Positions 1 through 14,003 of a stretch of DNA of 14,003 bases are shown here, in pieces (position 1 is the stretch's first letter; the number at the start of each line of letters is the position of its first letter). The stretch spans positions 1-14,003 of the IMG/VR virus record IMGVR_UViG_2778261067_000003; one strand, given 5' to 3'. The stretch is from a virus. Taxonomy: Duplodnaviria; Heunggongvirae; Uroviricota; Caudoviricetes. A program made the translations under genes and the position numbers. Under the pieces are notes generated by a model that saw only the letters and a list, made by a program, of their open reading frames with translations, made no database searches and was not told the origin of the DNA.

Positions 1-95
1 ACCGTCATCCCTGGTTCAAAGCTCTGCTGAACAATTGCGATCTTTTCCTGTGTGGTACGCCGTCTGCGTTTCTCCGGCCCTAAGACATCAATCAT
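1..95 (-). CDS. insC: IS2 OrfA/InsC transposase subunit, N-terminal part (partial, runs off the window)
   Basis: ATG at 93-95 on the minus strand, translating [31 protein letters not shown]..., the recalled InsC N-terminus. Open to the window edge, so it is absent from the ORF track. Confidence 0.75.
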
Positions 96-186
96 CTGTT
101 CTCCAATGACTAGTCTAAAAACTAGTATTAAGACTATCACTTATTTAAGTGATATTGGTTGTCTGGAGATTCAGGAGGCCAGTCTA
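1..186 (-). mobile_element. IS2 insertion sequence, left end (IRL plus start of orfA), continuing beyond the window edge
   Basis: Reverse complement of 186..71 reads TAGACTGGCCTCCTGAATCTCCAGACAACCAATATCACTTAAATAAGTGATAGTCTTAATACTAGTTTTTAGACTAGTCATTGGAGAACAGATGATTGATGTC..., which matches the IS2 terminus as I remember it. Not checked against ISfinder. Confidence 0.8.
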
Positions 187-435
187 ATGGCCACAGAACA
201 GGTAAAGACTTCCGGCAGGTTTCAGCACCCGCCAGAACTGCGCCAGACACTGGTCCAGCCACTTCAGGTAATCATCGTCGCCCTTCCACTGGTTATCCCA
301 GCCTTCAGGCTTCACTTTAAAGTACGGCGGGTCCGTGACTATCAGGTCAACAGAATTTTCGGGTAACGACCGGATAAATTCCAGGCAGTCGGCGTTGATT
401 AACTCACAACTGGATATTTTTACAGTATTAAGCAT
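187..435 (-). pseudogene. N6-adenine DNA methyltransferase (beta-class, DPPY motif), N-terminal 83 codons, interrupted by IS2
   Basis: Track ORF 184..435 carries ...VDLIVTDPPYF..., motif IV of amino-methyltransferases placed near the N-terminus as in beta-class enzymes. The TAG stop at 184-186 is supplied by the first bases of the IS2 terminus, and 83 aa is far short of a full enzyme. Confidence 0.7.
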
Positions 436-572
436 GGATCATTAAGCCTGTCTCTGATAGGCTCATTCTGCTTTTGCGCAAAGCAGATGGGCCTGAGGTT
501 TGCTTGTGACCCCAACGCATGAGCAGATGGCTGGTGAGTGCCCCTAACACCCACCAGCCGCCCATTTACCAC

Positions 573-600
573 AAATAAAAAAGCCTTCAGGACTGAAGGC
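573..600 (-). terminator. Rho-independent terminator (minus strand)
   Basis: Stem 583-589 GCCTTCA / 594-600 TGAAGGC with loop GGAC; on the minus-strand transcript it is followed by UUUUUUAUUU (plus-strand A-run 573-582). It overlaps the stop of the 587..784 ORF. Confidence 0.55.
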
Positions 601-784
601 GTCTGTAACAACCGAACTGATAGTCTGCCAGACCCGCCATAACAAGCTGGGTCAGTATTAGCTGGCAGCGTTCGCGTGAAAGGTACGTATTCTGTGCAAT
701 CTCCCCGACAGTCGCCGGTTCGGTGGCACTTAATTCATTAAAAACCACTCTGGCGGTTTCGGTCATATCCTGCTGTTTCAGCAT
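587..784 (-). CDS. Small hypothetical protein (about 65 aa) with a possible HTH/winged-helix segment
   Basis: Track ORF 587..877 trimmed to the internal ATG at 782-784 (MLKQQDMTETARVVFNELSATEPATVGEIAQNTYLSRERCQLILTQL...), with a purine-rich stretch about 10 nt upstream. A terminator sits at its 3' end. Function unknown. Confidence 0.45.
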   Translation of the reverse strand: MLKQQDMTETARVVFNELSATEPATVGEIAQNTYLSRERCQLILTQLVMAGLADYQFGCYRRLQS

Positions 785-957
785 GTCTTTTTCCCTTTTC
801 CGGTTAACGTGACACACCAATAACTCTTGTCGAAAAAGCCAGCAAGCTGAAAGACCGGTATTAATAACCACCTGCACATTTTATGTACTGCACCATTTTT
901 CTGGCATAAAAAAACCGCTCAATGCCGGGCAGTAAAATCTTTATTACTCAGGAAATT

Positions 958-1671
958 TTAACGTACTCTGACAGTATTAATTTCAAAATCATTAATATTT
1001 CCGCTATTAAATATAACGAATTTCTTACCCCCACTCCTGTATGATTTCGATAACACCAGACGATCATCATAGCGCGCAATAATGTAATACCATACATTCT
1101 CATAGTGGACCGTCTGATATTCCCTCTTAAACTGTGGTTTGTACCAACCGGCAATAAGAGAGAATGCCCAGAAATAAATCATAAACCCAGCCATCATGAA
1201 CTCAATTCGGTGATGGCGAATAACAGACATTTCCGAAAAACATTTGACTGAAACAAGTCTTCTTCCAGACCTGACAAAAAGCGTGATTGCAAAGGCAGCA
1301 AGAACACAGAAAATCAGTACATCTGGCTCAACATGCTGATGAATTACAGAAAACTCCAGAACAGGTGGAATAAAAAGCAGCAATATCGCGAGAAAAAGCC
1401 GGATAAAACTCAAATTTTGTATATTGCGCTTTTGTTTTATGCCCAAAAAGAAAACAATACCAACTCCCCATCCAATAAGGAATATAACGATAACTGTCAC
1501 AGCATAAAACAAACTTCGTGCTACATCATCGACACCAGCCCCGACAACCCACCATGGAAAGCCATAGTAAAATGAAGTACCCCATCCATAGAAATAAGCG
1601 CTCCCCCATCCGAGACAGCCCATATAAGCAACAAAAAGTGAAGAGTTTCTGAGCAGAGCACTGTCATCCAT
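958..1671 (-). CDS. Multi-pass membrane protein (about 5 predicted TM segments plus a roughly 60-aa soluble C-terminus), function unknown; AT-rich moron
   Basis: 237-aa ORF with a true ATG at 1669-1671. Hydrophobic stretches such as SLFYAVTVIVIFLIGWGVGIVFFLGI and LSFIRLFLAILLLFIPPVL. The region is visibly AT-rich compared with its neighbours. No recognisable catalytic motif. Confidence 0.6.
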   Translation of the reverse strand: MDDSALLRNSSLFVAYMGCLGWGSAYFYGWGTSFYYGFPWWVVGAGVDDVARSLFYAVTVIVIFLIGWGVGIVFFLGIKQKRNIQNLSFIRLFLAILLLFIPPVLEFSVIHQHVEPDVLIFCVLAAFAITLFVRSGRRLVSVKCFSEMSVIRHHRIEFMMAGFMIYFWAFSLIAGWYKPQFKREYQTVHYENVWYYIIARYDDRLVLSKSYRSGGKKFVIFNSGNINDFEINTVRVR

Positions 1672-1710
1672 AGTAACACCATTAACAACTCAAAAATATC
1701 AACACACATT

Positions 1711-1739
1711 ACATAACAAATTGGATTCCATGCAGTCAA
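1711..1739 (-). promoter_or_regulatory. Candidate sigma70 promoter for the membrane-protein moron
   Basis: Minus strand: TTGACT (plus 1734-1739), 17-bp spacer, TTATGT (plus 1711-1716), about 35 nt upstream of the ATG at 1671. Hexamer match only. Confidence 0.3.
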
Positions 1740-1811
1740 GGGGCGTCATTGATGGAGAAAGTATTGGCACAATCGTCATCACGTTTAATGTCTATGCCAT
1801 TTTTTGGGGGG

Positions 1812-1836
1812 TAAAAAACCCGCTCGGTCACGGGTT
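1812..1836 (-). terminator. Rho-independent terminator, tR'-like (downstream of the Q-like gene)
   Basis: Stem 1817-1822 AACCCG / 1831-1836 CGGGTT with an 8-nt loop; the minus-strand transcript continues with UUUUUUA. It lies about 70 nt downstream of the candidate pR'. Confidence 0.55.
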
Positions 1837-1888
1837 TTAGTGGCTTTGTCATCACGTATAATAACGGCAAAATATCAGATTTACACGA

Positions 1889-1917
1889 AACATATGCCTT
1901 TTTATCTACTTTTGCAA
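1889..1917 (-). promoter_or_regulatory. Candidate late promoter (pR'-like) just downstream of the Q-like gene
   Basis: Minus strand: TTGCAA (plus 1912-1917), 17-bp spacer, TATGTT (plus 1889-1894). Its position after the Q stop at 1925 and before the tR'-like terminator mirrors the lambdoid pR'/tR' layout. Confidence 0.4.
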
Positions 1918-1924
1918 TACTTTG

Positions 1925-2590
1925 CTATGAAAATGCCGCCTTTTGTTTTGAACGTGTTCCCTCCACCAACAATAAAGCTTCACTATCCAGCCGATGAAAA
2001 ATGTGTTTCATTGCAACCCAGTGACCAGTAAATGTCTTGGACCAGTTTTTGGTTGTTACTCCCACCAGTAACGCCAGTTCCTGGTATTCGTAACCTTCCC
2101 CACCAAAAAGCTCAGCTTTTACCGCCTGCGCCGCCAACCAGATCAACGTCTTCAGGCGCACCAGAGTTTTTCCTGCAATTTTTCTGGTACCGGATTGAGC
2201 ATTAAATTCAGTCCACGCCCACTGCGTTATCGCGATCTGATGCTCCCAGCAAATGCTACCGCTGTAACACCACAGCAGCCAGGCTTTATGATGTTCTTCA
2301 AGAGACAGAACGGCGCGTCGCCATGATGATGTCGAAAACTCAACCGGACTGACCAGGGCAATTGATGAGCCTTTCGCCAGTGATTGTTTACCCGGGATCG
2401 GGGGATTATCCCGCGTGATCATTTTTCCGGTTACCTCATCGCGGTAACGAATTTTTTTGCGTCTGTAACGCCCTGTATCGAACAGGGCATTTTCCTGCCA
2501 GGCTTCCAGCTGGCCTTTTGTCGACCCACTAAGATCCGCAGTGGCAATCATGAGTTGCTCACGAACAAACTGTAAATACTGGTTATTCAT
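1925..2590 (-). CDS. Putative late-gene antiterminator Q-like protein
   Basis: 221 aa from the ATG at 2588-2590 (the track start at 2596 is GTG). The start overlaps the rusA stop (ATGAATAA). The call rests on synteny (RusA, then this gene, then pR'/tR'); family assignment by sequence is uncertain. Confidence 0.5.
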   Translation of the reverse strand: MNNQYLQFVREQLMIATADLSGSTKGQLEAWQENALFDTGRYRRKKIRYRDEVTGKMITRDNPPIPGKQSLAKGSSIALVSPVEFSTSSWRRAVLSLEEHHKAWLLWCYSGSICWEHQIAITQWAWTEFNAQSGTRKIAGKTLVRLKTLIWLAAQAVKAELFGGEGYEYQELALLVGVTTKNWSKTFTGHWVAMKHIFHRLDSEALLLVEGTRSKQKAAFS

Positions 2591-2945
2591 GCACACCCAC
2601 CTCTGTAATTCTTATCTCCAGCCGTCCACCAGATACTGGCTTGCCACGTACAATATTGATTTCATCAAACTGCTCATCGTCCATTAACAACCCCGCGTGC
2701 GTCAGCGCATCCAGCGGTGCTTTCAGAATATTGTCCAGGTCACGGCGGCGCTTATCCGGTGGCTCTGCAATAATTTTTATTGCCAGCCGTCCGGACAGGC
2801 TTAATTTCAGTCGCTGCTGGCGAACAATAAGCGCCACTGCCCGGCGATAACGCTCCCCGGCTTTTGATACAAAATATGTGCTGCCACGGCGTCGCCAGTA
2901 AGTGTTCACCGTCGGCGGGTAAGGTAAAACCAAATCTATGAGCAT
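2583..2945 (-). CDS. rusA: Holliday junction resolvase RusA
   Basis: 120 aa, MLIDLVLPYPPTVNTYWRRRG...RRDLDNILKAPLDALTHAGLLMDDEQ...GGRLEIRITE, closely resembling E. coli RusA as I recall it. RBS AAGAGGTGA upstream of the ATG at 2943-2945. Confidence 0.9.
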   Translation of the reverse strand: MLIDLVLPYPPTVNTYWRRRGSTYFVSKAGERYRRAVALIVRQQRLKLSLSGRLAIKIIAEPPDKRRRDLDNILKAPLDALTHAGLLMDDEQFDEINIVRGKPVSGGRLEIRITEVGVHE

Positions 2946-2957
2946 CAGTCACCTCTT

Positions 2958-4007
2958 TTACCCGAGCACGCCAGTCGCAAAGGCGTGATCAAGAAAACGA
3001 AAAATTAACTCAATCTGAGAGCCGTACTTTTTCTCAAACTTCAGCGGGTCTGCATGAAGTTCGTTGTGGTGCTCCCGGCACAACGGTAGCGTGAAAATAT
3101 CGTGGGCCTTTGTTCCCACTCCCCCCTGACCATGACCAATCAGGTGATGCGGATCGTCAGCTGGCTTACCACAACACGCACACGGCTGTGTCTTTACCCA
3201 GCGCGTGTATTTCTCATTAACCCAACGGCGACGTTTAGGCCGCCTCATGAACGATTCAGGAGACTCCGGATCAACGGCGATACTGACAACCGTTTTTTTC
3301 TGTGGTGGATTTTGTTGCTGGTGGACGTGAAGTGGCAGCGCAATATTTTTTGTGCGCTGCTTCAGTATGCTGATGGCTGTCTGTTCTCCCGGTACGATGT
3401 CACTCTCACGGTATACGGAGCGGATTTTTTCCGCTGGTAATCCCAGCGAACGACGCGCTACTGCCTCAGGTAGTGCATCCACCACCTGATTGCAGGCCGC
3501 CCACCAGGATAATTCGGCCAGCGATAACTCCCTCTCCTGCGTACCGCTTATTGCGTGACGGATGACATCAATCATCCAGGCAACCAGATTCTGCTGAGCA
3601 AGTTGATCGAGTGATTCTGATGTCTGGTCGCGCAGCTGGTTGTCACAGTGCCAGCACAACACCATCGCGCCGGTACCATAACGGTGAATGACGGTTTCGC
3701 TGTGATGATAACCGCCGTGTGGCCACTGGCAGGATTTCACGTGACGTAATAACCAGTCAGACAGTGCACCTGCACCACCTGCAGCACGAATAACCCGCTC
3801 ATCGCTGAAAAATGGCAGTAATGTTTTATCCTCTGCCAGCGGCTGGCGAACGGCAGGAACGACTCCGGACGGCAGACCGCGCATGTTTTTCGGTTCCGGC
3901 TCCACCAATATTCTGCCGTTATGGAATACTGACATTGATTCACGGCCTGGCTTAACGATAACCAGACTGAGTTCCGGTACCAGAACAGGTCGAAGTAATA
4001 CCCGCAC
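2958..4007 (-). CDS. DUF968/YdfU-like phage protein with a C-terminal Cys/His cluster (HNH-like)
   Basis: 349 aa with a GTG start at 4005-4007 preceded by GGAGG at 5-nt spacing. C-terminus ...CACCGKPADDPHHLIGHGQGGVGTKAHDIFTLPLCREHHNELH.... Same length as the Qin YdfU I recall. Confidence 0.8.
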   Translation of the reverse strand: MRVLLRPVLVPELSLVIVKPGRESMSVFHNGRILVEPEPKNMRGLPSGVVPAVRQPLAEDKTLLPFFSDERVIRAAGGAGALSDWLLRHVKSCQWPHGGYHHSETVIHRYGTGAMVLCWHCDNQLRDQTSESLDQLAQQNLVAWMIDVIRHAISGTQERELSLAELSWWAACNQVVDALPEAVARRSLGLPAEKIRSVYRESDIVPGEQTAISILKQRTKNIALPLHVHQQQNPPQKKTVVSIAVDPESPESFMRRPKRRRWVNEKYTRWVKTQPCACCGKPADDPHHLIGHGQGGVGTKAHDIFTLPLCREHHNELHADPLKFEKKYGSQIELIFRFLDHAFATGVLG

Positions 4008-4008
4008 G

Positions 4009-4281
4009 TTACCTCCAGATGCGTTGCTGATATGTGCGGGACGGACGCGGCGGGCGTTCGGAATAAGGGAGCCTGACGGAAATTATCCAGTGTCGGAAGT
4101 CAGGACTGAGGCCTTTCTGAAACTGGTATCCACGTCTGCGGTAATTCTGAATCAGCCACTCGGCCTGTTCTTCAGTGCATTGGTCATGCTGGTACCAGTC
4201 ATATTTGAATGCGTGAGAGCGCCGTCCGTGTCTGCTGGCAGGGTCGGCATCAGAATTGTGGTGTTTGGTATTGTGCGCCAT
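4009..4281 (-). CDS. Hypothetical nin-region protein (about 90 aa)
   Basis: Track ORF 4009..4362 starts on TTG inside the U-tract of the upstream terminator, so I place the start at the internal ATG 4279-4281 (MAHNTKHHNSDADPASRHGRRSHAFKYDWYQHDQ...). Its stop abuts the RBS of the DUF968 gene. Confidence 0.5.
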   Translation of the reverse strand: MAHNTKHHNSDADPASRHGRRSHAFKYDWYQHDQCTEEQAEWLIQNYRRRGYQFQKGLSPDFRHWIISVRLPYSERPPRPSRTYQQRIWR

Positions 4282-4352
4282 CGGTTGTCTCTGCTGGCGC
4301 AGCAGGTGCCAGTTGTTCAGGCTGGCGTGTGGATTGTAAACCAGAATGCCAG

Positions 4353-4379
4353 GAAAAAACAAAACCCGCGAAGCGGGTT
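4353..4379 (-). terminator. Rho-independent terminator closing the R-M cassette
   Basis: Stem 4363-4369 AACCCGC / 4373-4379 GCGGGTT with loop GAA; the minus-strand transcript continues UUUUGUUUUUU. It lies 70-100 bp downstream of the endonuclease stop at 4452. Confidence 0.55.
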
Positions 4380-4451
4380 AGTAAAAATGTACTGAAGTCA
4401 ATGACGTGCCATCACAGTTAAAATATGACAGACTCTATTTACGTAGAGATG

Positions 4452-5330
4452 TCAGACTGCAAGATCCAAGGGAAGATCAGAAATATCCTTTAATCTTTTA
4501 CCATTAACCATCACGGAAAGCATGTCAGCTGCATCGCTGAGCCCCAGTATTTCAACTGCTGATATAAGTTCATAAAGCGCAAAATGATACACGCAATCTA
4601 TATCACCAGTACCAAGAGCAATAGACGCCAGACGACTTGGAGTAGGCTCAGCAGTAACAACCATTACATGAGGGAGATTTCCCTTACGGTTGCGAATAAG
4701 ATTTAATGCCTCAGAACGAGCATTCTGGGCCCGGTCGCTTCTTATTGTCCATTTGCAGGAAATACTTGCGTGTAATATTGGTTTCCCACCATTCGAACTC
4801 CTGAGAGCTGACATGCGGGTAACAGAATCATCCACCAGTAATTCAGGACTGTTGATAACTTGATCACATTCAGGTTCTCTTTCAACAATAATATCTGGTG
4901 AAATCGTATAATCACTCCCCAGTGCAGCAGCTAGCTGAGGATTACTTTTTGCAGCACTATCCAATGCTATAAGATGGGCATATTGTTCATATTTAGCTAT
5001 CTCTAATCTGTTTCTACCAGAAACCTGATGTACATTCCATTTTCCAGGGCGTAAGTGGCTGAGTTTAAAAAAGGTTTTTTCTATAAACTCTGCGCAGATA
5101 CTCTCAAACTGATTACCAGATGTTTGCCCTGCAACACGTTCACCAATCGTTTCAGCCTGCAAGAAGCGAGCAATTTCTCTTGCTATAGCTTTACTGTTTT
5201 TGTTACTGCTATCTGCGTTACTAACAACTCCGGCAGTATTAATTGTGAGCGTATTCAGTAACAATTGGGCATGAAACTCCTTTCTGGCTTCAGCAAAACC
5301 AACTATGCTGTCAACCAAATCTCCATTCAT
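4452..5330 (-). CDS. Type II restriction endonuclease, NgoMIV/Cfr10I/Bse634I-like (predicted CCGG-core recognition)
   Basis: 292 aa, ATG at 5328-5330 with AAGGA RBS, 13 bp after the methyltransferase stop. PD-(D/E)XK-type signature ...SPDIIVE... (D146) and ...SCKWTIRSDRAQNARSE... (K193, E207). The D-to-K (47) and K-to-E (14) spacing matches what I recall for NgoMIV (D140/K187/E201). Confidence 0.75.
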   Translation of the reverse strand: MNGDLVDSIVGFAEARKEFHAQLLLNTLTINTAGVVSNADSSNKNSKAIAREIARFLQAETIGERVAGQTSGNQFESICAEFIEKTFFKLSHLRPGKWNVHQVSGRNRLEIAKYEQYAHLIALDSAAKSNPQLAAALGSDYTISPDIIVEREPECDQVINSPELLVDDSVTRMSALRSSNGGKPILHASISCKWTIRSDRAQNARSEALNLIRNRKGNLPHVMVVTAEPTPSRLASIALGTGDIDCVYHFALYELISAVEILGLSDAADMLSVMVNGKRLKDISDLPLDLAV

Positions 5331-5343
5331 TTCTGGATTTCCT

Positions 5344-6468
5344 TCAGGCTACTTGACTATTCTTACTGATGTTATTCTTATACCGTCCCTGCAAAACTCC
5401 ATACACATATTGTGCGATTTTTGCCGCAAATAGCGGTGGAACAGCATTCCCGATCTGCTTTGCAATCTCAGTTTTTGAACCGGTAAAAATGAAATTATCA
5501 GGAAAAGACATTAATCTCGCTGCCTCACGATGAGTTATTGGCCGATCCTCTTCCGGATGTAAATATCGCCCTTTCTCCGGTTTGAAAAACTCAGTACGAA
5601 TCGTTACTGAAGGTCTGTCCCACCACAGACGTCCAAACAAATCGGTCCCTCCAGATTTCTTTTTTAGCCAGCACGCCGGGGTTATATCAGGTCTTTTTTT
5701 CTGTAAATCGAAACGGTTACCTCCTGGTGGAACCGCTTTATATCGCTCCAGAGAAACAGGTGTGGGATTACGCCCAAAATGTAAGTTCAGCGGAGGAAGT
5801 TCATTACGAATATCAGTTCCAACAGGAGCAGGTAAGTCACCAATTGCATCACGCGTACAGACCCATTCAGGCAAAGCGACATCCTTATCAGGGGAACGAT
5901 GCGTTGGTGCTGGCGGGAACGCCGGAATACTATGCACATCGAAGAGTTCTCGTTTGATACCGATTGCTATCGTTCGTTTTCTTGTCTGAGGTACTCCATA
6001 GTCAGCAGTATTCAACACCATTGGATTAAGCAGAATAAAGCCCATGGATTTCGCTCTAAACGTAATGTCCGCAAACTCATCGCTTATCAGCAATCCGGGG
6101 ACATTTTCCATGACGAACATACAAGCCCTTGAACGCTCAATGACATCCATATAAGGCTCCCACAATGCTCTTCGGTGATCACCATAACGATTCTTATTCA
6201 ATAAACTGAATCCCTGACACGGGGGGCCACCTATGACCACATCAGCCTCAGGAACAGTATTGCTGGATGCCCACTCCTCAATATTTGCCTGAACTCCATG
6301 CAAACCAAAATTGGCATTGTAGGTATTTATAGCTGCAGCATTATTATCAATAGCAAGGATACTTTCAAAGTAGTCAGACATCTCTCCATGAAGAAAACCA
6401 TAAGATAATCCACCTGCCCCACAAAAGAGGTCTATCACTCTGAATTTATTTAATTCTTTCATCCGCAT
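5344..6468 (-). CDS. DNA cytosine-5 methyltransferase (Type II R-M modification subunit)
   Basis: 374 aa with canonical m5C motifs: I DLFCGAGGLSYGF, IV GPPCQGFS (catalytic Cys), VI ENVPGL, VIII QTRKR, X GNAVPP. ATG at 6466-6468. Confidence 0.9.
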   Translation of the reverse strand: MRMKELNKFRVIDLFCGAGGLSYGFLHGEMSDYFESILAIDNNAAAINTYNANFGLHGVQANIEEWASSNTVPEADVVIGGPPCQGFSLLNKNRYGDHRRALWEPYMDVIERSRACMFVMENVPGLLISDEFADITFRAKSMGFILLNPMVLNTADYGVPQTRKRTIAIGIKRELFDVHSIPAFPPAPTHRSPDKDVALPEWVCTRDAIGDLPAPVGTDIRNELPPLNLHFGRNPTPVSLERYKAVPPGGNRFDLQKKRPDITPACWLKKKSGGTDLFGRLWWDRPSVTIRTEFFKPEKGRYLHPEEDRPITHREAARLMSFPDNFIFTGSKTEIAKQIGNAVPPLFAAKIAQYVYGVLQGRYKNNISKNSQVA

Positions 6469-6646
6469 CCATATGCCTCAGATTAATGTTGAGCGTCTTA
6501 CAGGACGCGTAATGTTAACTGGGGCTTTCTCTATCTGCCTTTTGGTGTTCATGCCTGAGGCAGACAGCCTCAGGCACCCGCAGCAATTCTACTTAACTCA
6601 CGTCACCTCGCCAATATGAAATCAATCAGAAAGGTGATCCATAAAA

Positions 6647-7333
6647 TCACTCCTTCTCTTCTTTTCCGTAGTGGAGTTGGCCAATTTTGATAAGAGGGCG
6701 TCCCTGAGATTTGCGGTGTAGATTGGTATCGCGCAGAGAATACACACAGCCACAATATTCCTGCTGATAGAATTTTTCGCGCTTGCTGATTTCAATCATA
6801 CGGGACGAGCCGCCCTGCTTGCGCCAGTTATAATCCCAGTACACCATACCCGGATAATGCGCAACAGCTCGCCGCCCACACTCGTTAACCTGCTGCATAT
6901 TTTTCCAGCGTGAAATGCCCAGTGAACTGCTGATCACACTGAAACCATTTTCAGCAGCGTACAACGCTGTCCGCTCAAAACGCATGTCAAAACACATGGT
7001 ACAACGGATCCCCCTCTCAGGCTCCCATTCCATTCCTTTGGCACGTTCAAACCAGTTGTCGGTGTCGTAATCAGCATCGATAAACGGCACGCCGTGTTGT
7101 TCAGCAAAGCGAATATTTTCATCCTTACGAATTAAATACTCTTTCTGAGGATGAATGTTCGGGTTGTAGAAAAAGATGGTGTAGTCGATTCCCGAGGCCT
7201 GAAGCGCCTCCATCACTTCACCGGAACATGGAGCACAGCAAGAGTGCAGTAGTAGTTTGTTTGCCCCGTTTGGGAGTTCCAATTTAGGCCGTTTGAAATC
7301 AGCAATAGTCATAAATATTTTTATTGGGGTCAT
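6647..7333 (-). CDS. queH: QueH (DUF208) family protein, epoxyqueuosine reductase homolog
   Basis: 228 aa with conserved cysteine clusters [22 protein letters not shown] and EYCGCVYS, typical of QueH/DUF208. No other queuosine pathway genes are present in the window. Confidence 0.8.
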
Positions 7334-7486
7334 GAAAATAGCACAGAGTGTAGCATCAGAGCAGGGCTATCGGGAATATATGTCTAAATCTGGTAATATC
7401 TGGTTTTGACGCAAAGCGGACAACCACGCTGGCTCTACCCTGCGCCATGAAAATGTCAATTCACATCTGAACTAATGCTCTTTAAT

Positions 7487-7882
7487 CTAGTAACGTCTAA
7501 AATACCTAACATTTCCTTGATAAAATGCCAGTACACGCTGCATAGCTTCGCTCTTCCGGCACTCGCGACAGATTATATTCAGGCGCCTGTCGTAGCGGCG
7601 TATTTCTCCGTCTGGTAACTTTCGAATCAGTGTCGGGTCAGCAGCCTTCTCCGGTGTCTTACGCCATACGCGATACGCCTGCTCTGATGGAAATACCCCG
7701 CAATCACAGAGCCAGACATCACCACTGGCCGCAAGCGCACCAGATAAACGACGAATAGCGGTCTTACTGACACCCGTTTTATCTGCCAGTTGTCGAAAAG
7801 TTTCTCGTCCGCTCAGGCGCACGAATTCCACAATGCGCGCCTTCACTTCTTCCCGCTCTTCTGGTGTAAATACTTTTGCCAT
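7487..7882 (-). CDS. Hypothetical phage protein (about 131 aa) with an HTH-like segment and Cys pairs
   Basis: The track start at 7897 is TTG; the ATG at 7880-7882 has GGAGG 7 nt upstream (MAKVFTPEEREEVKARIVEFVRLSGRETFRQLADKTGVSKTAIRRL...WLCDCG...ICRECR...). Confidence 0.6.
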   Translation of the reverse strand: MAKVFTPEEREEVKARIVEFVRLSGRETFRQLADKTGVSKTAIRRLSGALAASGDVWLCDCGVFPSEQAYRVWRKTPEKAADPTLIRKLPDGEIRRYDRRLNIICRECRKSEAMQRVLAFYQGNVRYFRRY

Positions 7883-7897
7883 AAGCGCCTCCGGCAA

Positions 7898-8668
7898 TCA
7901 CTTTTCCGACACAATACGACCGGATGAATCGACAATCTGTCGAACAATATCCCGGTGCTTGTTCAGCTCCCGCAGCGCGGCGCAGACTCGCTCCCACTTC
8001 TGAACCTGACCTTTTGCCCGGCGCAGCTCGCGGTTAGCCACATGCAGCGATGGTAAAATCAGACCATCCGGATGTTTTCTGGTGAACGACGGCTGTGACT
8101 GCACTGTGACCGCCACACTTTCAGTTTTTATTTCTTCCTGTGTTTCCGCTTCCCGGACAGGTAACGCAATACCTGCTGGCTGAGGAATGGCTTTACCATC
8201 CGTTTCCGCTACGGATGCAGCTTCCGGCTCTGCCGGTAAATCAGCGCCCGGTATGCAGTAACGAAATTTACCGTTCTGATTTACGCGTGCCAGGCGCCCC
8301 GTTGCTGTTACGACCGCCAACGTGGAAGCAACCTTGCGAATGCTAACACCGAACTTATCCGCCAGTTCCTCACACGTTTTAGCCCCATCCTGACAGATAA
8401 ACTCAATCATCATGTCCGCGGTAACTTTTTGTTCGACCTCCCCGGTCAGCACATCCGGTACTTCAGACTGTGCTGGCTGTTCTTCGGTTACCCCGGATTC
8501 ACCTTCACCAGCCAGAAACCAGGTGTGACCCGTTTTATCAACAACGCCATTTTCTTTGAGTTCCCACAGTTCGTTGAGAACTTCTTCACGGCTGATATCA
8601 AGCCGCGCCGCCAGTTCAACAGAATTGGCTTTACCCATCGCTTTCAGTGCATGCAATACGGTTTCCAT
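7898..8668 (-). CDS. Hypothetical phage protein (256 aa) with an N-terminal winged-helix-like segment and an acidic linker
   Basis: ATG at 8666-8668 with GGAGGAAG RBS. N-terminus [43 protein letters not shown], with a second similar segment ([19 protein letters not shown]). Directly downstream of the DnaC-like gene. Confidence 0.65.
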
Positions 8669-8697
8669 TAAAACTTCCTCCGGATAAAAATTACTTC

Positions 8698-9438
8698 TCA
8701 GTTCCTGTGCTGGCTGACGTTCGGACGCCAGCTCTCCCAGTTAAACGTCACCCAGCGACCACCGTTCATGGACATGCGGTCCATCACCCGCTCGCCGAGA
8801 AGTGTATTCATCGCTGCATGGTTAAGATTTGTCAGCATCCCCACACTGAGTAACGATGCCGTTCTGCGGTCAACAATCTGATTCAGCGTGACCTGCTCAT
8901 TACGCGTATCCCGTTGCATGCCAATTTCATCCAGTACCAGCAGGTCAACGCCACACAATCCCTGCAAAAATTTTTCGCCCGAGTTTTTGTTGTCGTAGCT
9001 GCCATGTAACGCCAGCATCACATCCGCCACTGTTATCACAATCACACTGCGACCTTTCGCCAGAAGGTGGTTGCCAATAGCCGCCGCCAGGTGGTTTTTT
9101 CCTGTGCCAGGCCTGCCACTGAAAACAAAATTCGTACAGCCGCCTTCCAGCTCTGCCGCAATGGATTTCGCCTGACTCAGGGCATGGCGCTGACCATCGT
9201 TCTGCACCCGGTAGTTACCGAACGTACACTTCCGGTGAAGCAGCTGGATACCGGAGCGGTTAATAATTTTTTCAACCCGCGTCTGATGATTCAGACGATT
9301 AACCTCCTCGCTGCGCTTACGCCCTTCAGCAAGCTGCCATTCCCGCCACTCCGCCACCGTACGGTACGGAGGGATTGCATCCTGCGGCACAAATCTGCTG
9401 ACTCTTGCCAGAACACCACCTGACGTAATGTTTTTCAT
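8698..9438 (-). CDS. DnaC-like replicative helicase loader (AAA+)
   Basis: 246 aa with Walker [16 protein letters not shown] and Walker B LLVLDEIG; end-to-end resemblance to recalled E. coli DnaC (...NRSGI..L....F.NYRV......ALS.A......F.G......[15 protein letters not shown]...). Confidence 0.9.
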
Positions 9439-9444
9439 GGTGCG

Positions 9445-10392
9445 CTACCCCCTGAAACCCGGCGGAATTTCGGTATCCGGTTCAGAAATATGATTCACGC
9501 AACGCTGCGCGGGACCACGCCACAGTCGAATAACCAGTTCATCCCATTTCTCACGGAGTTTTTCCGGGCTCTTGATGTTTTTTATCCAGAACGGATCTCG
9601 TTGTGCCCGGCTGAACATTTCGCAAATTTGTCTGTGACTTCTTCCATCCAGCATCCGCATTGTGCGCACGTCATTGGCCCACGCCGTCCAGTTGGGCTCT
9701 TTCGGTCGCGTGATCTCACCATCGTCACTGGCAGCCTGTTCGTAAAGACTCACGATTCGTCCCCAGATCCACTGTGCGCACACCAAATCTTCCTGACTTC
9801 CCCACTGGCGTTTTTTCGCACTGAACACAACCGCGTCAGGGTGTCGGGTTAAAAAATCCTGTTCAGCCGTCTGCGGGTCCGGTTGCGAAGCGTCCGGACA
9901 AGAAGATCTTTTATCTGACGGATCAGGTTTTAATACTGACGGATCGGGGTCAATCATCGGCCCCCTAATCGGCAGTTTTTTATCAACAGTTGATCCATCA
10001 AAATTTGACGGGTCAACCGTTGAGGGGTCAATATTTGACGGGTCATTTTTTGCCGGGCTAATTTTTCTTTTCGGTTTATATGACTCACGCGCCGCCGCCG
10101 CAGCTGCTTCGAGTTTTTCCACATTAAGCCGATAGATATTGCTTACATTACGCCCACCGACCTTACGCTCTTCCTTCGTCAGCCAGCCCTCTTTCGCCAG
10201 TTCTGCAATAGCCGATTTCACTGTGGATTCACTTCTTGCACCGATCTGACGCCGGATAGTTTCAATGGCAGGCCATGACACGCCCTCGTCATTGCTGTAG
10301 TCTGCAAGACGGGCCATAACCGCCACCCTGGATAAGATCATGCCGGTGAAGGCGCACCCTTCCCAGACAAGACCATGAAGCTTGCTGCTCAT
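9445..10392 (-). CDS. Phage replication initiation protein (O-like: N-terminal HTH, repeat linker, DnaT-like C-terminus)
   Basis: Start placed at ATG 10390-10392 (MSSKL..., GGGGG upstream) rather than the track start at 10407. The C-terminus ...VNHISEPDTEIPPGFRG resembles the E. coli DnaT C-terminus (...SEPDSQIPPGFRG). A DPS-repeat linker (DPSNIDPSTVDPSNFDGSTVD) is encoded by the iteron DNA. Confidence 0.85.
   Translation of the reverse strand: MSSKLHGLVWEGCAFTGMILSRVAVMARLADYSNDEGVSWPAIETIRRQIGARSESTVKSAIAELAKEGWLTKEERKVGGRNVSNIYRLNVEKLEAAAAAARESYKPKRKISPAKNDPSNIDPSTVDPSNFDGSTVDKKLPIRGPMIDPDPSVLKPDPSDKRSSCPDASQPDPQTAEQDFLTRHPDAVVFSAKKRQWGSQEDLVCAQWIWGRIVSLYEQAASDDGEITRPKEPNWTAWANDVRTMRMLDGRSHRQICEMFSRAQRDPFWIKNIKSPEKLREKWDELVIRLWRGPAQRCVNHISEPDTEIPPGFRG
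9911..10080. repeat. Iteron-like repeats plus AT-rich tract inside the O-like gene: candidate replication origin
   Basis: TTGACGGGTCA at 10005-10015 and 10035-10045, TTGAGGGGTCA 10020-10030, TTGATCCATCA 9990-10000, TGACGGATC at 9916-9924 and 9937-9945, followed by an AT-rich stretch at about 10046-10080. This parallels lambda ori lying within gene O. Confidence 0.5.
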
Positions 10393-10414
10393 AAAACCCC
10401 CGAACACCGTGCTT

Positions 10415-10840
10415 TTAGTGCATCACCACAGCATTCCCTGCCGGGCCGCCGCGATTCATCTGGTCATACAAAACAACCGCTGACGCAACAAAATCATCGA
10501 CATCCTTCACCAGCCGATCCCTCCGTTCGACGATCTCACGGTAATATTCAGAACTGTGGCTGCGCATACGGGCCACCAGCAAAGGCGGCATCGCCTTTTC
10601 GATCGCCGGTAACAGAGCCTGCATTTTTTCAACAGCATCAGGGGTGTCTTTATCCAGCCAACGGAAAATTTTCTGGGTATTACGGGCCAGGGCTTCCGGA
10701 TGGCTGTCGTCATACAGTTCCGGGAACGTCATTCCCAGCTCGAAATACGCTTTGGTAATTTTCGCAGCCGGCACTTTTTCGCCGTCCGGATGCGCCCAGA
10801 CATTCATCGCCATGCGGATGTGTTCATGCTTGATTTTCAT
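10415..10840 (-). CDS. YdaT-like protein (CII-position regulator of Rac/Qin-type prophages)
   Basis: 141 aa, ATG at 10838-10840 with GGGGGG RBS; start overlaps the stop of the Cro-like gene (ATGA). N-terminus MKIKHEHIRMAMN... matches my recollection of the YdaT family. Confidence 0.7.
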   Translation of the reverse strand: MKIKHEHIRMAMNVWAHPDGEKVPAAKITKAYFELGMTFPELYDDSHPEALARNTQKIFRWLDKDTPDAVEKMQALLPAIEKAMPPLLVARMRSHSSEYYREIVERRDRLVKDVDDFVASAVVLYDQMNRGGPAGNAVVMH

Positions 10841-11067
10841 GAATCCCCCCCTTGGTTAGAAGGCGGATTATGATCAGAACCGGGAATGACAACCGTCGGT
10901 ATGTGTAACTCATATTTGAGCGCCCCGGCAGTGACTGCCTGAATTAGCAACGCCCATTTCCACGGAACCTCTTCCCCCCACATGCTGACTGTGGTTTTTG
11001 ACGTTCCTAGAGCTGCGGCTGTTTTAACAACTCCGCCAAAATAGCCTAATACTTCTGATTTTTTCAT
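10837..11067 (-). CDS. Cro-like / YdaS-like HTH regulator
   Basis: 76 aa from the ATG at 11065-11067 (MKKSEVLGYFGGVVKTAAALGTSKTTVSMWGEEVP...) with GGAG about 8 nt upstream. Divergent from the CI-like repressor; HTH pattern of the YdaS family. Confidence 0.7.
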   Translation of the reverse strand: MKKSEVLGYFGGVVKTAAALGTSKTTVSMWGEEVPWKWALLIQAVTAGALKYELHIPTVVIPGSDHNPPSNQGGDS

Positions 11068-11141
11068 GAGTCGCTCCATAAAACTGAACGTCAAAAGTTT
11101 AATAATCAAAACCAAAGAAAGTCAAGAAACAAAACCATCTG

Positions 11142-11159
11142 TGTTTTAAAATCAAAACA
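11142..11159. promoter_or_regulatory. Operator-like palindrome TGTTTT-N6-AAAACA abutting the repressor start codon
   Basis: TGTTTTaaaatcAAAACA at 11142-11159, a perfect 6-bp inverted repeat; the cI-like ATG is 11159-11161, implying a leaderless or very short-leader repressor mRNA. An identical motif recurs at 11864-11881. Confidence 0.5.
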
Positions 11160-11797
11160 TGAGCAAGCAAACTATATCTGAACGCATAACCCAACGTATG
11201 CATGCGCTAAACCTGAAAGGCAAAGACCTTGTCAATGGCACTGGCGCATCAAAAGGCTCCGTAAGTCAATGGATGAACGGTGGAGGAGCGCCGTCCTCGC
11301 GTTACATAAGTTCACTGGCAAAAATATTGAAAGTAAACGAAAATTGGCTTCTTAATGGAGGAGAGTTAAATACAGGTGATTCGCTTGATCTATCTTTACC
11401 GCCGATAAAAACGGTTCCGCTACTATCACTTCAGCAGGCAGCAAGCTGGAGTGATTATATGAAAAATTCCTCAATAACCTCTTGTGTGCAGCTTGTCGGA
11501 GAAATCCCGGTCAATACCTTTGCAGTTGTTCTAGAGAGTGACAGTATGTCAACATCTGGTGGGGGAGTTTCCATCCCAAATGGTTCAACAGTTTTTGTTG
11601 ATCCCGATCGAACCGTACAACCAGGAAATATTGTCCTTGCCTTACCCAAAGGGACCACAACACCTGTCATTCGTAAACTGGAGATAGAAGGGCCGGATAT
11701 TCTTTTAGTCCCCACGAATCCTCGCTACCCTTCAATTATGCTGGATGATCTATCTTGCATATTGGGCGTATGCTTTAAAATTCAACAAGATATTTAA
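11159..11797 (+). CDS. Lambda CI-type prophage repressor (N-terminal HTH, C-terminal S24 LexA-like autopeptidase)
   Basis: 212 aa. N-terminus ...LNLKGKDLVNGTGASKGSVSQWMNG... (HTH). C-terminus ...LESDSMS...VFVDPDRTVQPGNIVLA...VIRKLE... aligns with the Ser/Lys dyad region of lambda CI/LexA. Confidence 0.9.
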   Translation: MSKQTISERITQRMHALNLKGKDLVNGTGASKGSVSQWMNGGGAPSSRYISSLAKILKVNENWLLNGGELNTGDSLDLSLPPIKTVPLLSLQQAASWSDYMKNSSITSCVQLVGEIPVNTFAVVLESDSMSTSGGGVSIPNGSTVFVDPDRTVQPGNIVLALPKGTTTPVIRKLEIEGPDILLVPTNPRYPSIMLDDLSCILGVCFKIQQDI

Positions 11798-11863
11798 CCA
11801 ACCTCATCTATTTGATTAACTGTATGCCATCGTGGTGATGGCTTAACAGCTGCCTGCTTAAAA

Positions 11864-11910
11864 TGTTTTGATAAAAAAACATTGACCTGAAAAGTTCGTT
11901 TTTCTAAACT
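11864..11910 (+). promoter_or_regulatory. Second operator copy fused to a candidate promoter for the dicB-type operon
   Basis: TGTTTTgataaaAAAACA at 11864-11881, immediately followed by TTGACC (11882-11887), 17 bp, TAAACT (11905-11910). Confidence 0.45.
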
Positions 11911-12089
11911 TCATTCGTTCCCTCACCCCATCCTACAGAATGCAGGGCAATACTTCGAGTTACCAGGCAGTGGTCAGGGGTTAAGTAGCCAGCCCGAGGC
12001 GTAAGAACATGACGGCAGGGTTCAACTTTAATAACTATGCAGCAGGTTTTTGTTCCGCTACCCCGGCGTTAAGGGGAAATGAGGTCAGC

Positions 12090-12245
12090 ATGGATACTAT
12101 CGATCTTGGCAACAACGAATCTCTGGTGTACGGCGTGTTTCCAAACCAGGACGGCACCTTCACCGCAATGACGTATACAAAAAGCAAAACGTTTAAAACC
12201 GAAAATGGTGCCCGTCGCTGGCTGGAAAGAAACTCAGGTGAGTGA
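12090..12245 (+). CDS. ydfA: YdfA-like small protein (51 aa), first gene of the dicB-type operon
   Basis: ATG at 12090 with GAGG 5 nt upstream (MDTIDLGNNESLVYGVFPNQDGTFTAMTYTKSKTFKTENGARRWLERNSGE). Length and position match Qin ydfA as I recall it. The track ORF 12009..12245 is an N-terminal over-extension. Confidence 0.65.
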   Translation: MDTIDLGNNESLVYGVFPNQDGTFTAMTYTKSKTFKTENGARRWLERNSGE

Positions 12246-12246
12246 T

Positions 12247-12375
12247 ATGGATTTCAACACAATCATGGAAAAGGCTTACGAAGAATACTTCGAAGGCCTT
12301 GCCGAAGGCGAAGAAGCCCTCAGCTTCAGTGAGTTTAAACAGGCGCTTTCCAGTTCGGCAAAATCTAACGGCTGA
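12247..12375 (+). CDS. ydfB: YdfB-like small protein (42 aa)
   Basis: Not in the track (too short). ATG 12247-12249 overlaps the upstream stop (TGATATG). Translation MDFNTIMEKAYEEYFEGLAEGEEALSFSEFKQALSSSAKSNG, stop at 12373-12375. Confidence 0.6.
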   Translation: MDFNTIMEKAYEEYFEGLAEGEEALSFSEFKQALSSSAKSNG

Positions 12376-12404
12376 TAAGCGAAACAGCACCGCGAGGAAT
12401 CAGT

Positions 12405-12623
12405 ATGCAGAAACGAGAACCCGTCATCATCGCGCCAGACTATACCGATGATGAACTTTATGAGTGGATGCACCAGAAAATTAAGGCTGCGCAGGACCTG
12501 AAATGGGCCAATGAAGCCAAGACTAAGCAGGCTGAAAATCTGTCCGCTCTGGAGCAGGATATCACCAGGCTGGAAAAAGCAGCGGCATTAAGCATTGCCA
12601 GAATGATTACATACCCGCGTTAA
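12405..12623 (+). CDS. ydfC: YdfC-like small protein (72 aa)
   Basis: Track ORF with AGGAA RBS before the ATG at 12405. Length and position match Qin ydfC (72 aa) as recalled. Confidence 0.65.
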   Translation: MQKREPVIIAPDYTDDELYEWMHQKIKAAQDLKWANEAKTKQAENLSALEQDITRLEKAAALSIARMITYPR

Positions 12624-12934
12624 TAGCTAACCAACGAAGCTAAGGTTGGTAATTAAAGAGTTCTCCACGGGTGAGCATCCGGCACTGACAGTTTACTGAA
12701 AGGATATTTCCCTGAAAAGTCAGACCATAACGCGAAAGCGCACGGCGAGGTAGCTGGTTCATAGATAGCCTGTCGTTAAATTTTCGTCGACCGTGCGCTT
12801 CCGGTTGTGGCACTCCGCGAAATGGCGCGGCGGTAAGTATGGCGGGGTTATTCCTTCCCCGTTGAGGACACCGGGTTGTCAGGTTGACCATACGCTTAAG
12901 TGACAACCCCGCTGCAACGCCCTCTGTTATCAAT

Positions 12935-12992
12935 TTTCTGGTGACGTTTGGCGGTATCAGTTTTACTCCGTGACTGCTCTGCCGCCCTTTTT
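12935..12992 (+). ncRNA. dicF: DicF small regulatory RNA (ftsZ-targeting sRNA of the dicB operon)
   Basis: TTTCTGGTGACGTTTGGCGGTATCAGTTTTACTCCGTGACTGCTCTGCCGCCCTTTTT matches the DicF sequence as I remember it, ends in a T-run (12988-12992), and sits between the ydfC-like and dicB genes as in Qin. Confidence 0.75.
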
Positions 12993-13161
12993 AAAGTGAA
13001 TTTTGTGATGTGGTGAATGCGGCTGAGCGCACGCGGAACAGTTAAAACCAAAAACAGTGTTATGGGTGGATTCTCTGTATCCGGCGTTAATTGTTAACTG
13101 GTTAACGTCACCTGGAGGCACCAGGCACCGCATCACAAAATTCATTGTTGAGGACGCGATA

Positions 13162-13350
13162 ATGGAAACGTTATTACCAAACGTTAATACGTCTGAAGGT
13201 TGTTTTGAAATTGGTGTCACTATCAGTAACCCTGAATTTACTGAAGATGCCATTAACAAGAGAAAACACGAACGGGAGTTATTAAATAAAATATGCATTG
13301 TTTCAATGCTGGCCCGTTTACGCCTGATGCAAAAAGGACGCTGGCAATGA
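13162..13350 (+). CDS. dicB: Cell-division inhibitor DicB
   Basis: 62 aa from the ATG at 13162 with GAGGA RBS: METLLPNVNTSEGCFEIGVTISNPEFTEDAINKRKHERELLNKICIVSMLARLRLMQKGRWQ, near-identical to recalled E. coli DicB. The track ORF 13057..13350 is over-extended. Confidence 0.85.
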   Translation: METLLPNVNTSEGCFEIGVTISNPEFTEDAINKRKHERELLNKICIVSMLARLRLMQKGRWQ

Positions 13351-13550
13351 ATACTGCTGTTGCCCTCACTCTGACTGTTTTTCTTAATACTGGCGAACCT
13401 GTTGATGTGGTTACTGGTATATATGGTTCAATGAAAGAATGTATGGCTGCCGCAGCAGAACAGAAAATTCCTGGTAACTGTTATCCGGTCGAGAAAGTTA
13501 TTCGCATGGATAATAACGAAATCCCGGCAGGATTAAAAACAGCGCCGTAA
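13347..13550 (+). CDS. ydfD: YdfD-like small protein with hydrophobic N-terminus
   Basis: ATG 13347-13349 overlaps the dicB stop (ATGA). MNTAVALTLTVFLNTGEPVDVVTGIYGSMKECMAAAAEQKIPGNCYPVEK...; position matches ydfD in Qin. Confidence 0.7.
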   Translation: MNTAVALTLTVFLNTGEPVDVVTGIYGSMKECMAAAAEQKIPGNCYPVEKVIRMDNNEIPAGLKTAP

Positions 13551-13629
13551 TTAATATCCAGTTTCATTTTTATATGCCAGCAATGGCAGGGATTTGTTCA
13601 CCCTTAAATCTGTAATGAGGTAAAACAAA

Positions 13630-14003
13630 ATGAGTAAAGTCTTTATTTGCGCCGCCATTCCGGACGAACAGGCAATAAAGGAAGAAGGTGCAGTCGCTGT
13701 AGCCACTGCCATTGAAGCCGGTGATGAACGTCGCGCCCGTGCAAAATTTCACTGGCAATTCCTGGAACATTATCCGGCTGCTCAGGACTGCGCTTATAAA
13801 TTTCTTGTTTGCGAGGATAAACCCGGTATACCCCGCCCTGCCCTCGATTCCTGGGATGCTGAATATATGCAGGAAAACCGCTGGGATGAGGAGTCTGCTT
13901 CCTTTGTCCCGGTTGAGACTGAATCAGATCCGATGAACGTCACTTTTGACAAGCTGGCCCCTGAAGTACAGAACGCTGTCATGGTTAAGTTCGACACATG
14001 TGA
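13630..14003 (+). CDS. YdfE-like protein, N-terminal part (open to the right window edge)
   Basis: ATG at 13630 with GAGG RBS; the frame stays open for 124 codons to the window end (MSKVFICAAIPDEQAIKEEGAVAVATAIEAGDERRARAKFHWQFLEHYPAAQDCAYKF...). Missing from the track because there is no stop. Competing track ORFs here are in other frames or antisense. Confidence 0.6.
   Translation, partial: MSKVFICAAIPDEQAIKEEGAVAVATAIEAGDERRARAKFHWQFLEHYPAAQDCAYKFLVCEDKPGIPRPALDSWDAEYMQENRWDEESASFVPVETESDPMNVTFDKLAPEVQNAVMVKFDTC

Follow-up and report, generated by a model that had tools for sequence, protein, structure and literature searches.

Escherichia coli does not synthesize cobalamin (vitamin B12) de novo, and its epoxyqueuosine reductase QueG depends on imported corrinoid. 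The QueH family (DUF208, COG1636, and PF02677) carries the conserved cysteine clusters CCxxC/D, CxxC, and CxC, which together with other invariant residues build a [4Fe-4S]-plus-iron site; its structure is known from Thermotoga maritima (Protein Data Bank (PDB) entry 7LC5), and the family-level knowledge of its cobalamin independence is said to come from the 2017 work of Zallot et al. QueG and QueH belong to unrelated families with different cofactor sets: the QueG reaction is cobalamin dependent (PMC4646009), whereas QueH is a non-orthologous replacement for QueG (PMC5372724). In phages, queuosine-pathway genes have been described in 7-deazaguanine clusters, where DpdA is accompanied by FolE, QueD, QueE, and QueC, as in phages 9g and CAjan. 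These clusters serve to synthesize preQ0-type bases and place them in DNA, and they do so without QueA, QueG, or QueH; indeed, the main survey of phage deazaguanine genes found no homologs of these three proteins in the viruses analyzed (PMC6884629). Here, we analyze a queH gene within a 14,003-nucleotide stretch of DNA (the window), positions 1 to 14,003 of the IMG/VR virus record IMGVR_UViG_2778261067_000003 (Caudoviricetes). The gene occupies the open reading frame (ORF) 6647..7333 on the minus strand, 228 aa in the ORF list with translations, and the window, judged by its gene content, is the early-right region of a lambdoid prophage. Like the 7-deazaguanine clusters, this locus is a case of phage-borne queuosine-pathway genes, but it holds only the last, tRNA-specific step and no DNA-modification genes. 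The gene probably encodes an active epoxyqueuosine reductase that was captured with its own promoter and that would convert epoxyqueuosine (oQ34) to queuosine (Q34) on host tRNA without cobalamin, backing up QueG.

A first-pass annotation made from the sequence had assigned the ORF to the QueH/DUF208 family on the basis of its cysteine clusters, and profile comparison places the protein inside that family. The clusters, including the CGC motif, are present in the minus-strand translation, and the PF02677 (QueH) profile in Pfam matches the ORF with 221.5 bits (E 1.1e-65), the cut-off being 23.5. This score is far above chance, and by this measure, the ORF 6647-7333 is no chance reading frame. 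The match is full length, with residues 27-201 of the ORF aligning to profile positions 1-174 of 175. No NCBIfam model matched the protein, and Pfam found no domain besides PF02677; the protein thus has no detectable B12-binding domain, in which it differs from the cobalamin-requiring QueG. The only solved structures matched by sequence were those of T. maritima QueH, namely 7LC5 (E 8e-22) and its mutants. For a residue-by-residue comparison, 36-37 diverse homologs with 35-86% identity, taken from a search of 1.84 billion representatives, were aligned, with the 7LC5 sequence included in one of the alignments. All 16 invariant columns are kept in the prophage protein: C25, C26, N52, E58, Y59, R62, E99, R103, C104, C107, K137, Q184, C187, G188, C189, and S192. 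The T. maritima residues Cys9 and Asp13, which are mutated in PDB entries 9D86 and 9DCO, align with C25 and C29, respectively. At position 29, the prophage protein follows the family norm with its cysteine, whereas the T. maritima enzyme has Asp13 there.

The predicted fold agrees with this assignment. The AlphaFold2 model of the protein has a mean predicted local distance difference test score (pLDDT) of 93.3 and a predicted template modeling score (pTM) of 0.89, and T. maritima QueH accounts for all five of the closest PDB matches (E 4e-14, TM-target 0.90-0.92, root mean square deviation (rmsd) 1.5-2.0 Å), the best being 7LC5 with a TM-target of 0.92 and an rmsd of 1.5 Å. The next fold matches, at E values above 1e-4, are more distant and include TtuA, LarE, and further adenine nucleotide alpha-hydrolase folds. 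By profile, residues, and modeled fold, the prophage protein is a QueH of the ordinary kind. What sets it apart from known QueH proteins is its setting: it is carried by lambdoid (pro)phages, not encoded at a housekeeping locus of the chromosome, and its host already has QueG, which makes it a second, redundant reductase.

The open frame reaches upstream to an ATG at 7333. In the upstream alignment, this codon is changed to ATT in allele GPEC657 and is missing 5' of the chromosomal orthologs. The Prokaryotic Genome Annotation Pipeline (PGAP) places the start of the identical protein WP_000150294.1, named 'epoxyqueuosine reductase QueH', at 7312. Because the ATG at 7333 is not conserved, the true start is most likely the ATG at 7312, which gives a predicted coding sequence at 6647..7312 on the minus strand (221 aa plus stop).

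Comparative alignment of the region upstream of this start reveals an extended -10 promoter-like element, TGCTACACT, at 7355..7347 on the minus strand, 34 nt upstream of the ATG at 7312. Together with an A/U-rich leader, it forms a conserved 5' block at 7313..7360 (minus strand) that travels with queH. In an upstream alignment of six contexts, a block of about 45 nt 5' of the start is conserved in each. Every phage and prophage allele keeps TGCTACACT, even one whose upstream context is unrelated; for GPEC657, the stretch homologous to the other alleles reaches only about 45-50 nt 5' of the start. The extended -10 is also present 5' of chromosomal queH in Scandinavium, Kluyvera, Enterobacter, Symbiopectobacterium, and Brenneria. 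More generally, 21 of the 77 regions upstream of chromosomal queH contain the pattern TGnTAnnnT, compared with a background of 2.5% (p ~2e-16), always at 33-51 nt and mostly at 33-40 nt from the ATG. We infer that TGCTACACT is the gene's own putative promoter, brought along from a chromosomal ancestor. Rfam scans gave no support for any known RNA element, riboswitches included, in the leader of queH: the whole window at the gathering threshold gave none in the leader, and a scan of 7280-7500 with E up to 10 gave chance-level matches only and no preQ1 riboswitch.

The protein sequence points to the same origin. QueH from the prophage is 88-92% identical to the proteins of Scandinavium, Kluyvera, and Enterobacter and 80-86% identical to those of Erwinia, Providencia, Proteus, Photorhabdus, and others, so that it shares with the chromosomal QueH of other Enterobacterales both 80-92% identity and the upstream extended -10 element. 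The Enterobacter and Scandinavium copies sit among ordinary, nonphage chromosomal genes, and among the 80 genome loci retrieved, lambdoid neighbors were found only at the Escherichia albertii locus. Because of the 88-92% identity to Enterobacter/Scandinavium queH and the retained promoter-like element, the gene was evidently captured directly, as a housekeeping gene with its native promoter-like element. Among seven phage-borne alleles, the ratio of nonsynonymous to synonymous divergence (dN/dS) is 0.03-0.06 over synonymous divergence (dS) of up to 0.44, which indicates that purifying selection of housekeeping grade was held while queH was phage borne. These values bear on the possibility that queH is a neutral passenger, a chromosomal gene gained by illegitimate recombination and hitch-hiking with lambdoid modules, with no effect since QueG suffices. 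The gene is redundant with queG in every genome, and its slot is known for variable cargo, holding an unrelated gene in prophage Sp4 of strain Sakai; both facts would fit a passenger. However, the low dN/dS across this range of dS, the retention of all catalytic residues, and coverage of at least 80% of the gene's length in 985 of 995 carrier genomes make neutrality quite unlikely.

Carriage by the prophage, as the first-pass annotation had it, is borne out by the surroundings of the gene in the window and in related elements. The gene order in the window runs from a cI-like repressor (11159-11797, plus strand; window annotation) through Cro, YdaT, an O-like initiator, a DnaC-like loader, DUF1627, and DUF977/Ren-like to queH; beyond queH follow a C5 methyltransferase, an NgoMIV-family endonuclease, a small conserved ORF, DUF968, RusA, and antiterminator Q. 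The gene for the DUF977/Ren-like exclusion protein (7487..7897, minus strand; PF06163, E 7e-39; PHROG phrog_142) is the last of the replication module and the usual left-hand neighbor of queH, lying 5' of it in 77 of 78 IMG/VR loci. The closest public match to the window is E. coli ECA64, with 99.7% identity over the aligning 92% of the window, where the element is a 57-kb prophage between potB and potC. queH occurs in prophages at different integration sites, and the viable, isolated temperate phage HannyBb carries a 95%-identical queH in the same slot of its complete genome (PP925841.1, 33011-33697). In strain B-1109, a defective prophage remnant has lost its late genes and kept queH intact.

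The description of the gene as a stand-alone QueH also holds. The window ORFs include no other queuosine or 7-deazaguanine gene and, specifically, no DpdA/TGT-like protein, FolE, or QueC/D/E/F. Likewise, in the annotated ECA64 prophage, which is the closest full prophage, looking for dpdA, queC, queD, and queE homologs in the remainder of the element yielded none, and FolE, QueF, TGT, and QueA were absent too; the complete HannyBb genome has no other queuosine gene and no deazaguanine DNA-modification gene. The earlier suggestion that queH might be left over from a deazaguanine DNA-modification module is therefore not supported, as no partner genes exist in the ECA64 prophage or HannyBb and the identity to chromosomal queH with their promoter-like element speaks for direct capture. 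We know of no epoxyqueuosine in DNA. It is true that phages use preQ0-derived bases in their DNA (PMC6884629) and that queH adjoins a restriction-modification (R-M) system in the window, as might be expected if QueH were a remnant or component of a 7-deazaguanine system and acted on DNA or the free base instead of tRNA. However, the missing DpdA/TGT-like, FolE, and QueC/D/E/F partners, the rarity of the R-M adjacency (57 of about 985 complete genomes with queH), and the survey's lack of QueA, QueG, and QueH in the viruses analyzed (PMC6884629) render such a role barely credible.

The distribution of the gene and of the host pathway defines what its product could act on. queH is present in 995 of 5426 complete E. 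coli genomes (about 18%), nearly always as a single, chromosomal copy, and both immediate flanks are common to 942 of the 995 carriers, which include ST131, O157, O103/O111, and avian pathogenic E. coli (APEC) strains. IMG/VR holds at least 188 matching stretches; 80 of them were retrieved and are 100% identical at the protein level. QueH-like genes in other 'phage' records, most of which are unannotated gut contigs, Acinetobacter and Staphylococcus records of very large size, or short fragments from Listeria, were not used as evidence for phage carriage. On the host side, queG is present in all 5426 complete E. coli genomes, consistent with the earlier statement that E. coli uses QueG for this step, and queA-tgt in 5425 of them. 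Therefore, every carrier makes oQ-tRNA and already has the cobalamin-dependent reductase. QueG and QueH, for which the same reaction on the same tRNA substrates is predicted, are thus both encoded in every queH-carrying E. coli.

An altered queuosine status of host tRNA, one of the outcomes offered in the first-pass annotation, is still the best reading of the sequence data. In the mechanism we propose, lambdoid phages would have captured queH, promoter included, from an Enterobacter/Scandinavium-like chromosome within the Enterobacteriaceae and would have retained it, between the replication module and the hok locus, as an auxiliary gene of the moron type. The predicted [4Fe-4S]-plus-iron enzyme would reduce the oQ epoxide at wobble position 34 to Q on host tRNA-Asp, -Asn, -His, and -Tyr, the same reaction as that of QueG with no need for cobalamin. 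Because E. coli makes no cobalamin de novo and QueH needs none, a lysogen or infected cell that has QueH would finish maturing its Q-tRNA regardless of the supply of B12 or other corrinoids. The locus resembles the lambdoid morons and auxiliary genes of the nin/early-right region in being a single gene, of the kind called nonessential, with its own promoter-like element in a variable slot between conserved modules. It differs from them in that no terminator follows queH, which runs straight into the hok promoter region, and in that its predicted product is a housekeeping tRNA-modification enzyme, not a virulence or exclusion factor.

Several points weigh against this proposal. We infer, rather than observe, the enzymatic activity on E. 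coli tRNA, the expression in a lysogen, the B12 independence, and B12 independence as the selected benefit. The selective benefit is speculative because a functional difference between oQ and Q in E. coli is not established. The generic two-hexamer sigma-70 scan did not flag TGCTACACT, which has no -35 match, and no obvious Shine-Dalgarno sequence was found in the queH leader. Moreover, phage core genes show no enrichment in NAU codons (0.57 compared with 0.53-0.59 for host genes). A codon-usage rationale, in which NAU-rich phage genes would need Q, is therefore not supported, the foreign R-M cassette being the only NAU-rich part (0.79). Finally, queH is part of the delayed-early rightward operon, and its expression may therefore fall mainly in lytic growth.

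This last point leads to a different use of the same activity, in which queH would be transcribed in the delayed-early PR operon and the conversion of host tRNA from oQ to Q would aid late-gene translation rather than constitute lysogenic conversion. queH is co-oriented with, and lies between, the replication genes and antiterminator Q; there is no terminator-like site between it and DUF977 upstream or hok downstream; and the viable phage HannyBb retains it in the same slot, all of which would suit a lytic-cycle role. On the other hand, the native chromosomal extended -10 has been kept, which would be unnecessary were PR read-through enough, the phage genes have no NAU-codon bias relative to host genes, and defective remnants such as that of B-1109 keep queH intact although their late genes are lost. 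We consider a role mainly in the lytic cycle unlikely in comparison with backup of QueG in the lysogen.

The enzyme itself is ordinary and is already named QueH by the RefSeq PGAP annotation; what is unremarked in the literature searched is its phage context, as the full-text searches returned no paper on phage- or prophage-borne QueH. In phage resources, the family is listed as PHROGs phrog_3217 'unknown function', with a profile that starts at ORF residue 41, and the HannyBb copy is annotated 'hypothetical protein'; both can be corrected to QueH. The locus also provides a counterexample to the statement that viruses have no QueA, QueG, or QueH homologs (PMC6884629). If the enzyme is active, it would amount to a simple lysogenic conversion of the tRNA modification machinery in about 18% of complete E. 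coli genomes; to complete queuosine synthesis, the carriers would then need no vitamin B12, which E. coli has to scavenge as a nutrient in the gut. Whether oQ and Q differ physiologically, a long-standing loose end, would then become directly testable with natural isogenic pairs of lysogens and cured strains with or without B12.

On its other side, queH borders a region of variable cargo. A 5' remnant of a hok/sok toxin-antitoxin locus, about 170 bp long (6476..6646, minus strand), begins straight after the queH stop codon; Rfam places sok (RF01794, 61 bits) at 6399-6579, and the generic sigma-70 scan gives a promoter-like TTGGCG-17-TAGAAT at 6614..6586 within the remnant. The terminator scan gave no terminator-like site between queH and this remnant. 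About 3950 E. coli genomes have the hok/sok segment, whether they carry queH or not. In the window, it is followed by a type II R-M cassette (4452..6468, minus strand; variable cargo, PADLOC MTase_II and REase_II) that consists of a C5 cytosine methyltransferase (5344-6468, minus strand; PF00145, E 4e-54) and an NgoMIV-family endonuclease (4452-5330, minus strand; PF09015, E 6e-127). Homology to intact queH-hokD loci ends at 6475/6476, just before the methylase ATG (6468/6462), which lies 7-13 nt past the junction. Because homology to the intact loci ends at this point, the alignment tells us that the R-M cassette has replaced the mok/hok coding region, and the R-M operon appears to lie downstream of the promoter and leader of hok. 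The GC content of the cassette (43%, compared with 47.6% for the window) and its fraction of NAU-ending His, Asn, Asp, and Tyr codons (0.79, compared with 0.57 in the phage core genes) suggest that the cassette was acquired recently from a foreign source. The endonuclease gene is followed by a strong terminator-like hairpin at 4379-4363.

The first-pass annotation had also placed queH directly upstream of the R-M cassette. As a description of the window this is accurate, since queH does precede the C5-methyltransferase/NgoMIV-family pair, but the adjacency carries no special meaning. queH adjoins the cassette in only 57 complete genomes, of about 985 with the gene, and in 20 of 78 IMG/VR loci; the commonest arrangement is queH followed by hokD. 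Elsewhere, the interval between queH/hok and a conserved 90-aa 'MAH.TK...' ORF is filled with Kiwa (KwaA/KwaB), RosmerTA (RmrT/RmrA), a ParE/RelE-like pair with a lipoprotein, or insertion sequence (IS) elements. Instances of this cargo hotspot are found at 4363-6475 of the window and, in other retrieved loci, at 2153-3792 of L090/L091, 4891-6625 of L015, 9247-11003 of L076, and 9185-10162 of L006. Kiwa and R-M join the hok leader at different points. Because only 57 genomes have the R-M cassette next to queH and the cargo varies, the adjacency is incidental, and a functional tie between queH and the cassette, which is one of many cargos that replace or follow hok, is ruled out. Across the loci compared, queH is the constant gene bordering a variable defense-cargo hotspot. 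In the Sakai (O157:H7) prophage Sp4, the queH slot between DUF977 and hok holds an unrelated, oppositely oriented gene (ECs_1077, 4541-5314 of locus L085; 257 aa, no PADLOC match), and therefore, the position of queH is itself a variable slot.

The hotspot raises the question of whether QueH takes part in conflict. To our knowledge, no nuclease discriminates oQ from Q. The oQ/Q state might nonetheless affect how sensitive GUN-anticodon tRNAs are to anticodon nucleases or to colicin E5-type toxins, or QueH might act with the neighboring defense cargo. In one form of this idea, the oQ/Q state would be a stake in phage-host or phage-phage conflict, and by fixing the anticodon modification state, QueH would alter the toxin susceptibility of GUN-tRNAs or give insensitivity to B12 starvation after loss of the receptor BtuB, a loss that also confers phage and colicin resistance. 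Different prophages do have type II R-M, Kiwa, RosmerTA, hok/sok, or the ParE/RelE-like pair in the hotspot that queH borders, and the upstream neighbor of queH is a Ren-like exclusion protein. However, a search of PADLOC-DB v2 gave no QueH match at E up to 0.01; the matches were to the neighbors (MTase_II and REase_II) and, at other loci, to KwaA/KwaB and RmrT/RmrA, which speaks against membership of QueH in a known defense system. In addition, queH stays constant while the defense cargo varies and so is not a component of any one system, and the protein is nearly identical to housekeeping enzymes with no sign of neofunctionalization. We therefore hold any part in conflict, whether through the cargo or through the oQ/Q state as a stake, to be very unlikely. 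If it were true, this would be the first instance in which a phage reprograms the host epitranscriptome for conflict by means of a queuosine-pathway enzyme.

Three further features of the window lie apart from queH. Just downstream of antiterminator Q, the minus-strand ORF 958-1671 encodes a hydrophobic, apparently multi-pass membrane protein of 237 aa that has no Pfam or PADLOC match and matches PHROGs only of unknown function (phrog_1521). It could be a further moron, located at the Q/late-promoter position where Stx-type phages carry cargo. A full-length DicF antisense small RNA is present at 12936-12987 on the plus strand (Rfam RF00039, 76.7 bits) in the leftward early operon, where it follows the repressor and a DUF1391 gene and precedes a DUF1482 ORF; these surroundings form a dicB-type cell-division inhibition region, typical of Qin/Rac-like prophages. 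At 184-435 on the minus strand lies an 83-aa N-terminal fragment of an N6-adenine DNA methyltransferase (NCBIfam PRK11524, E 3e-15), the gene for which is split in ECA64 by an IS2 insertion, where the alignment with the window breaks.

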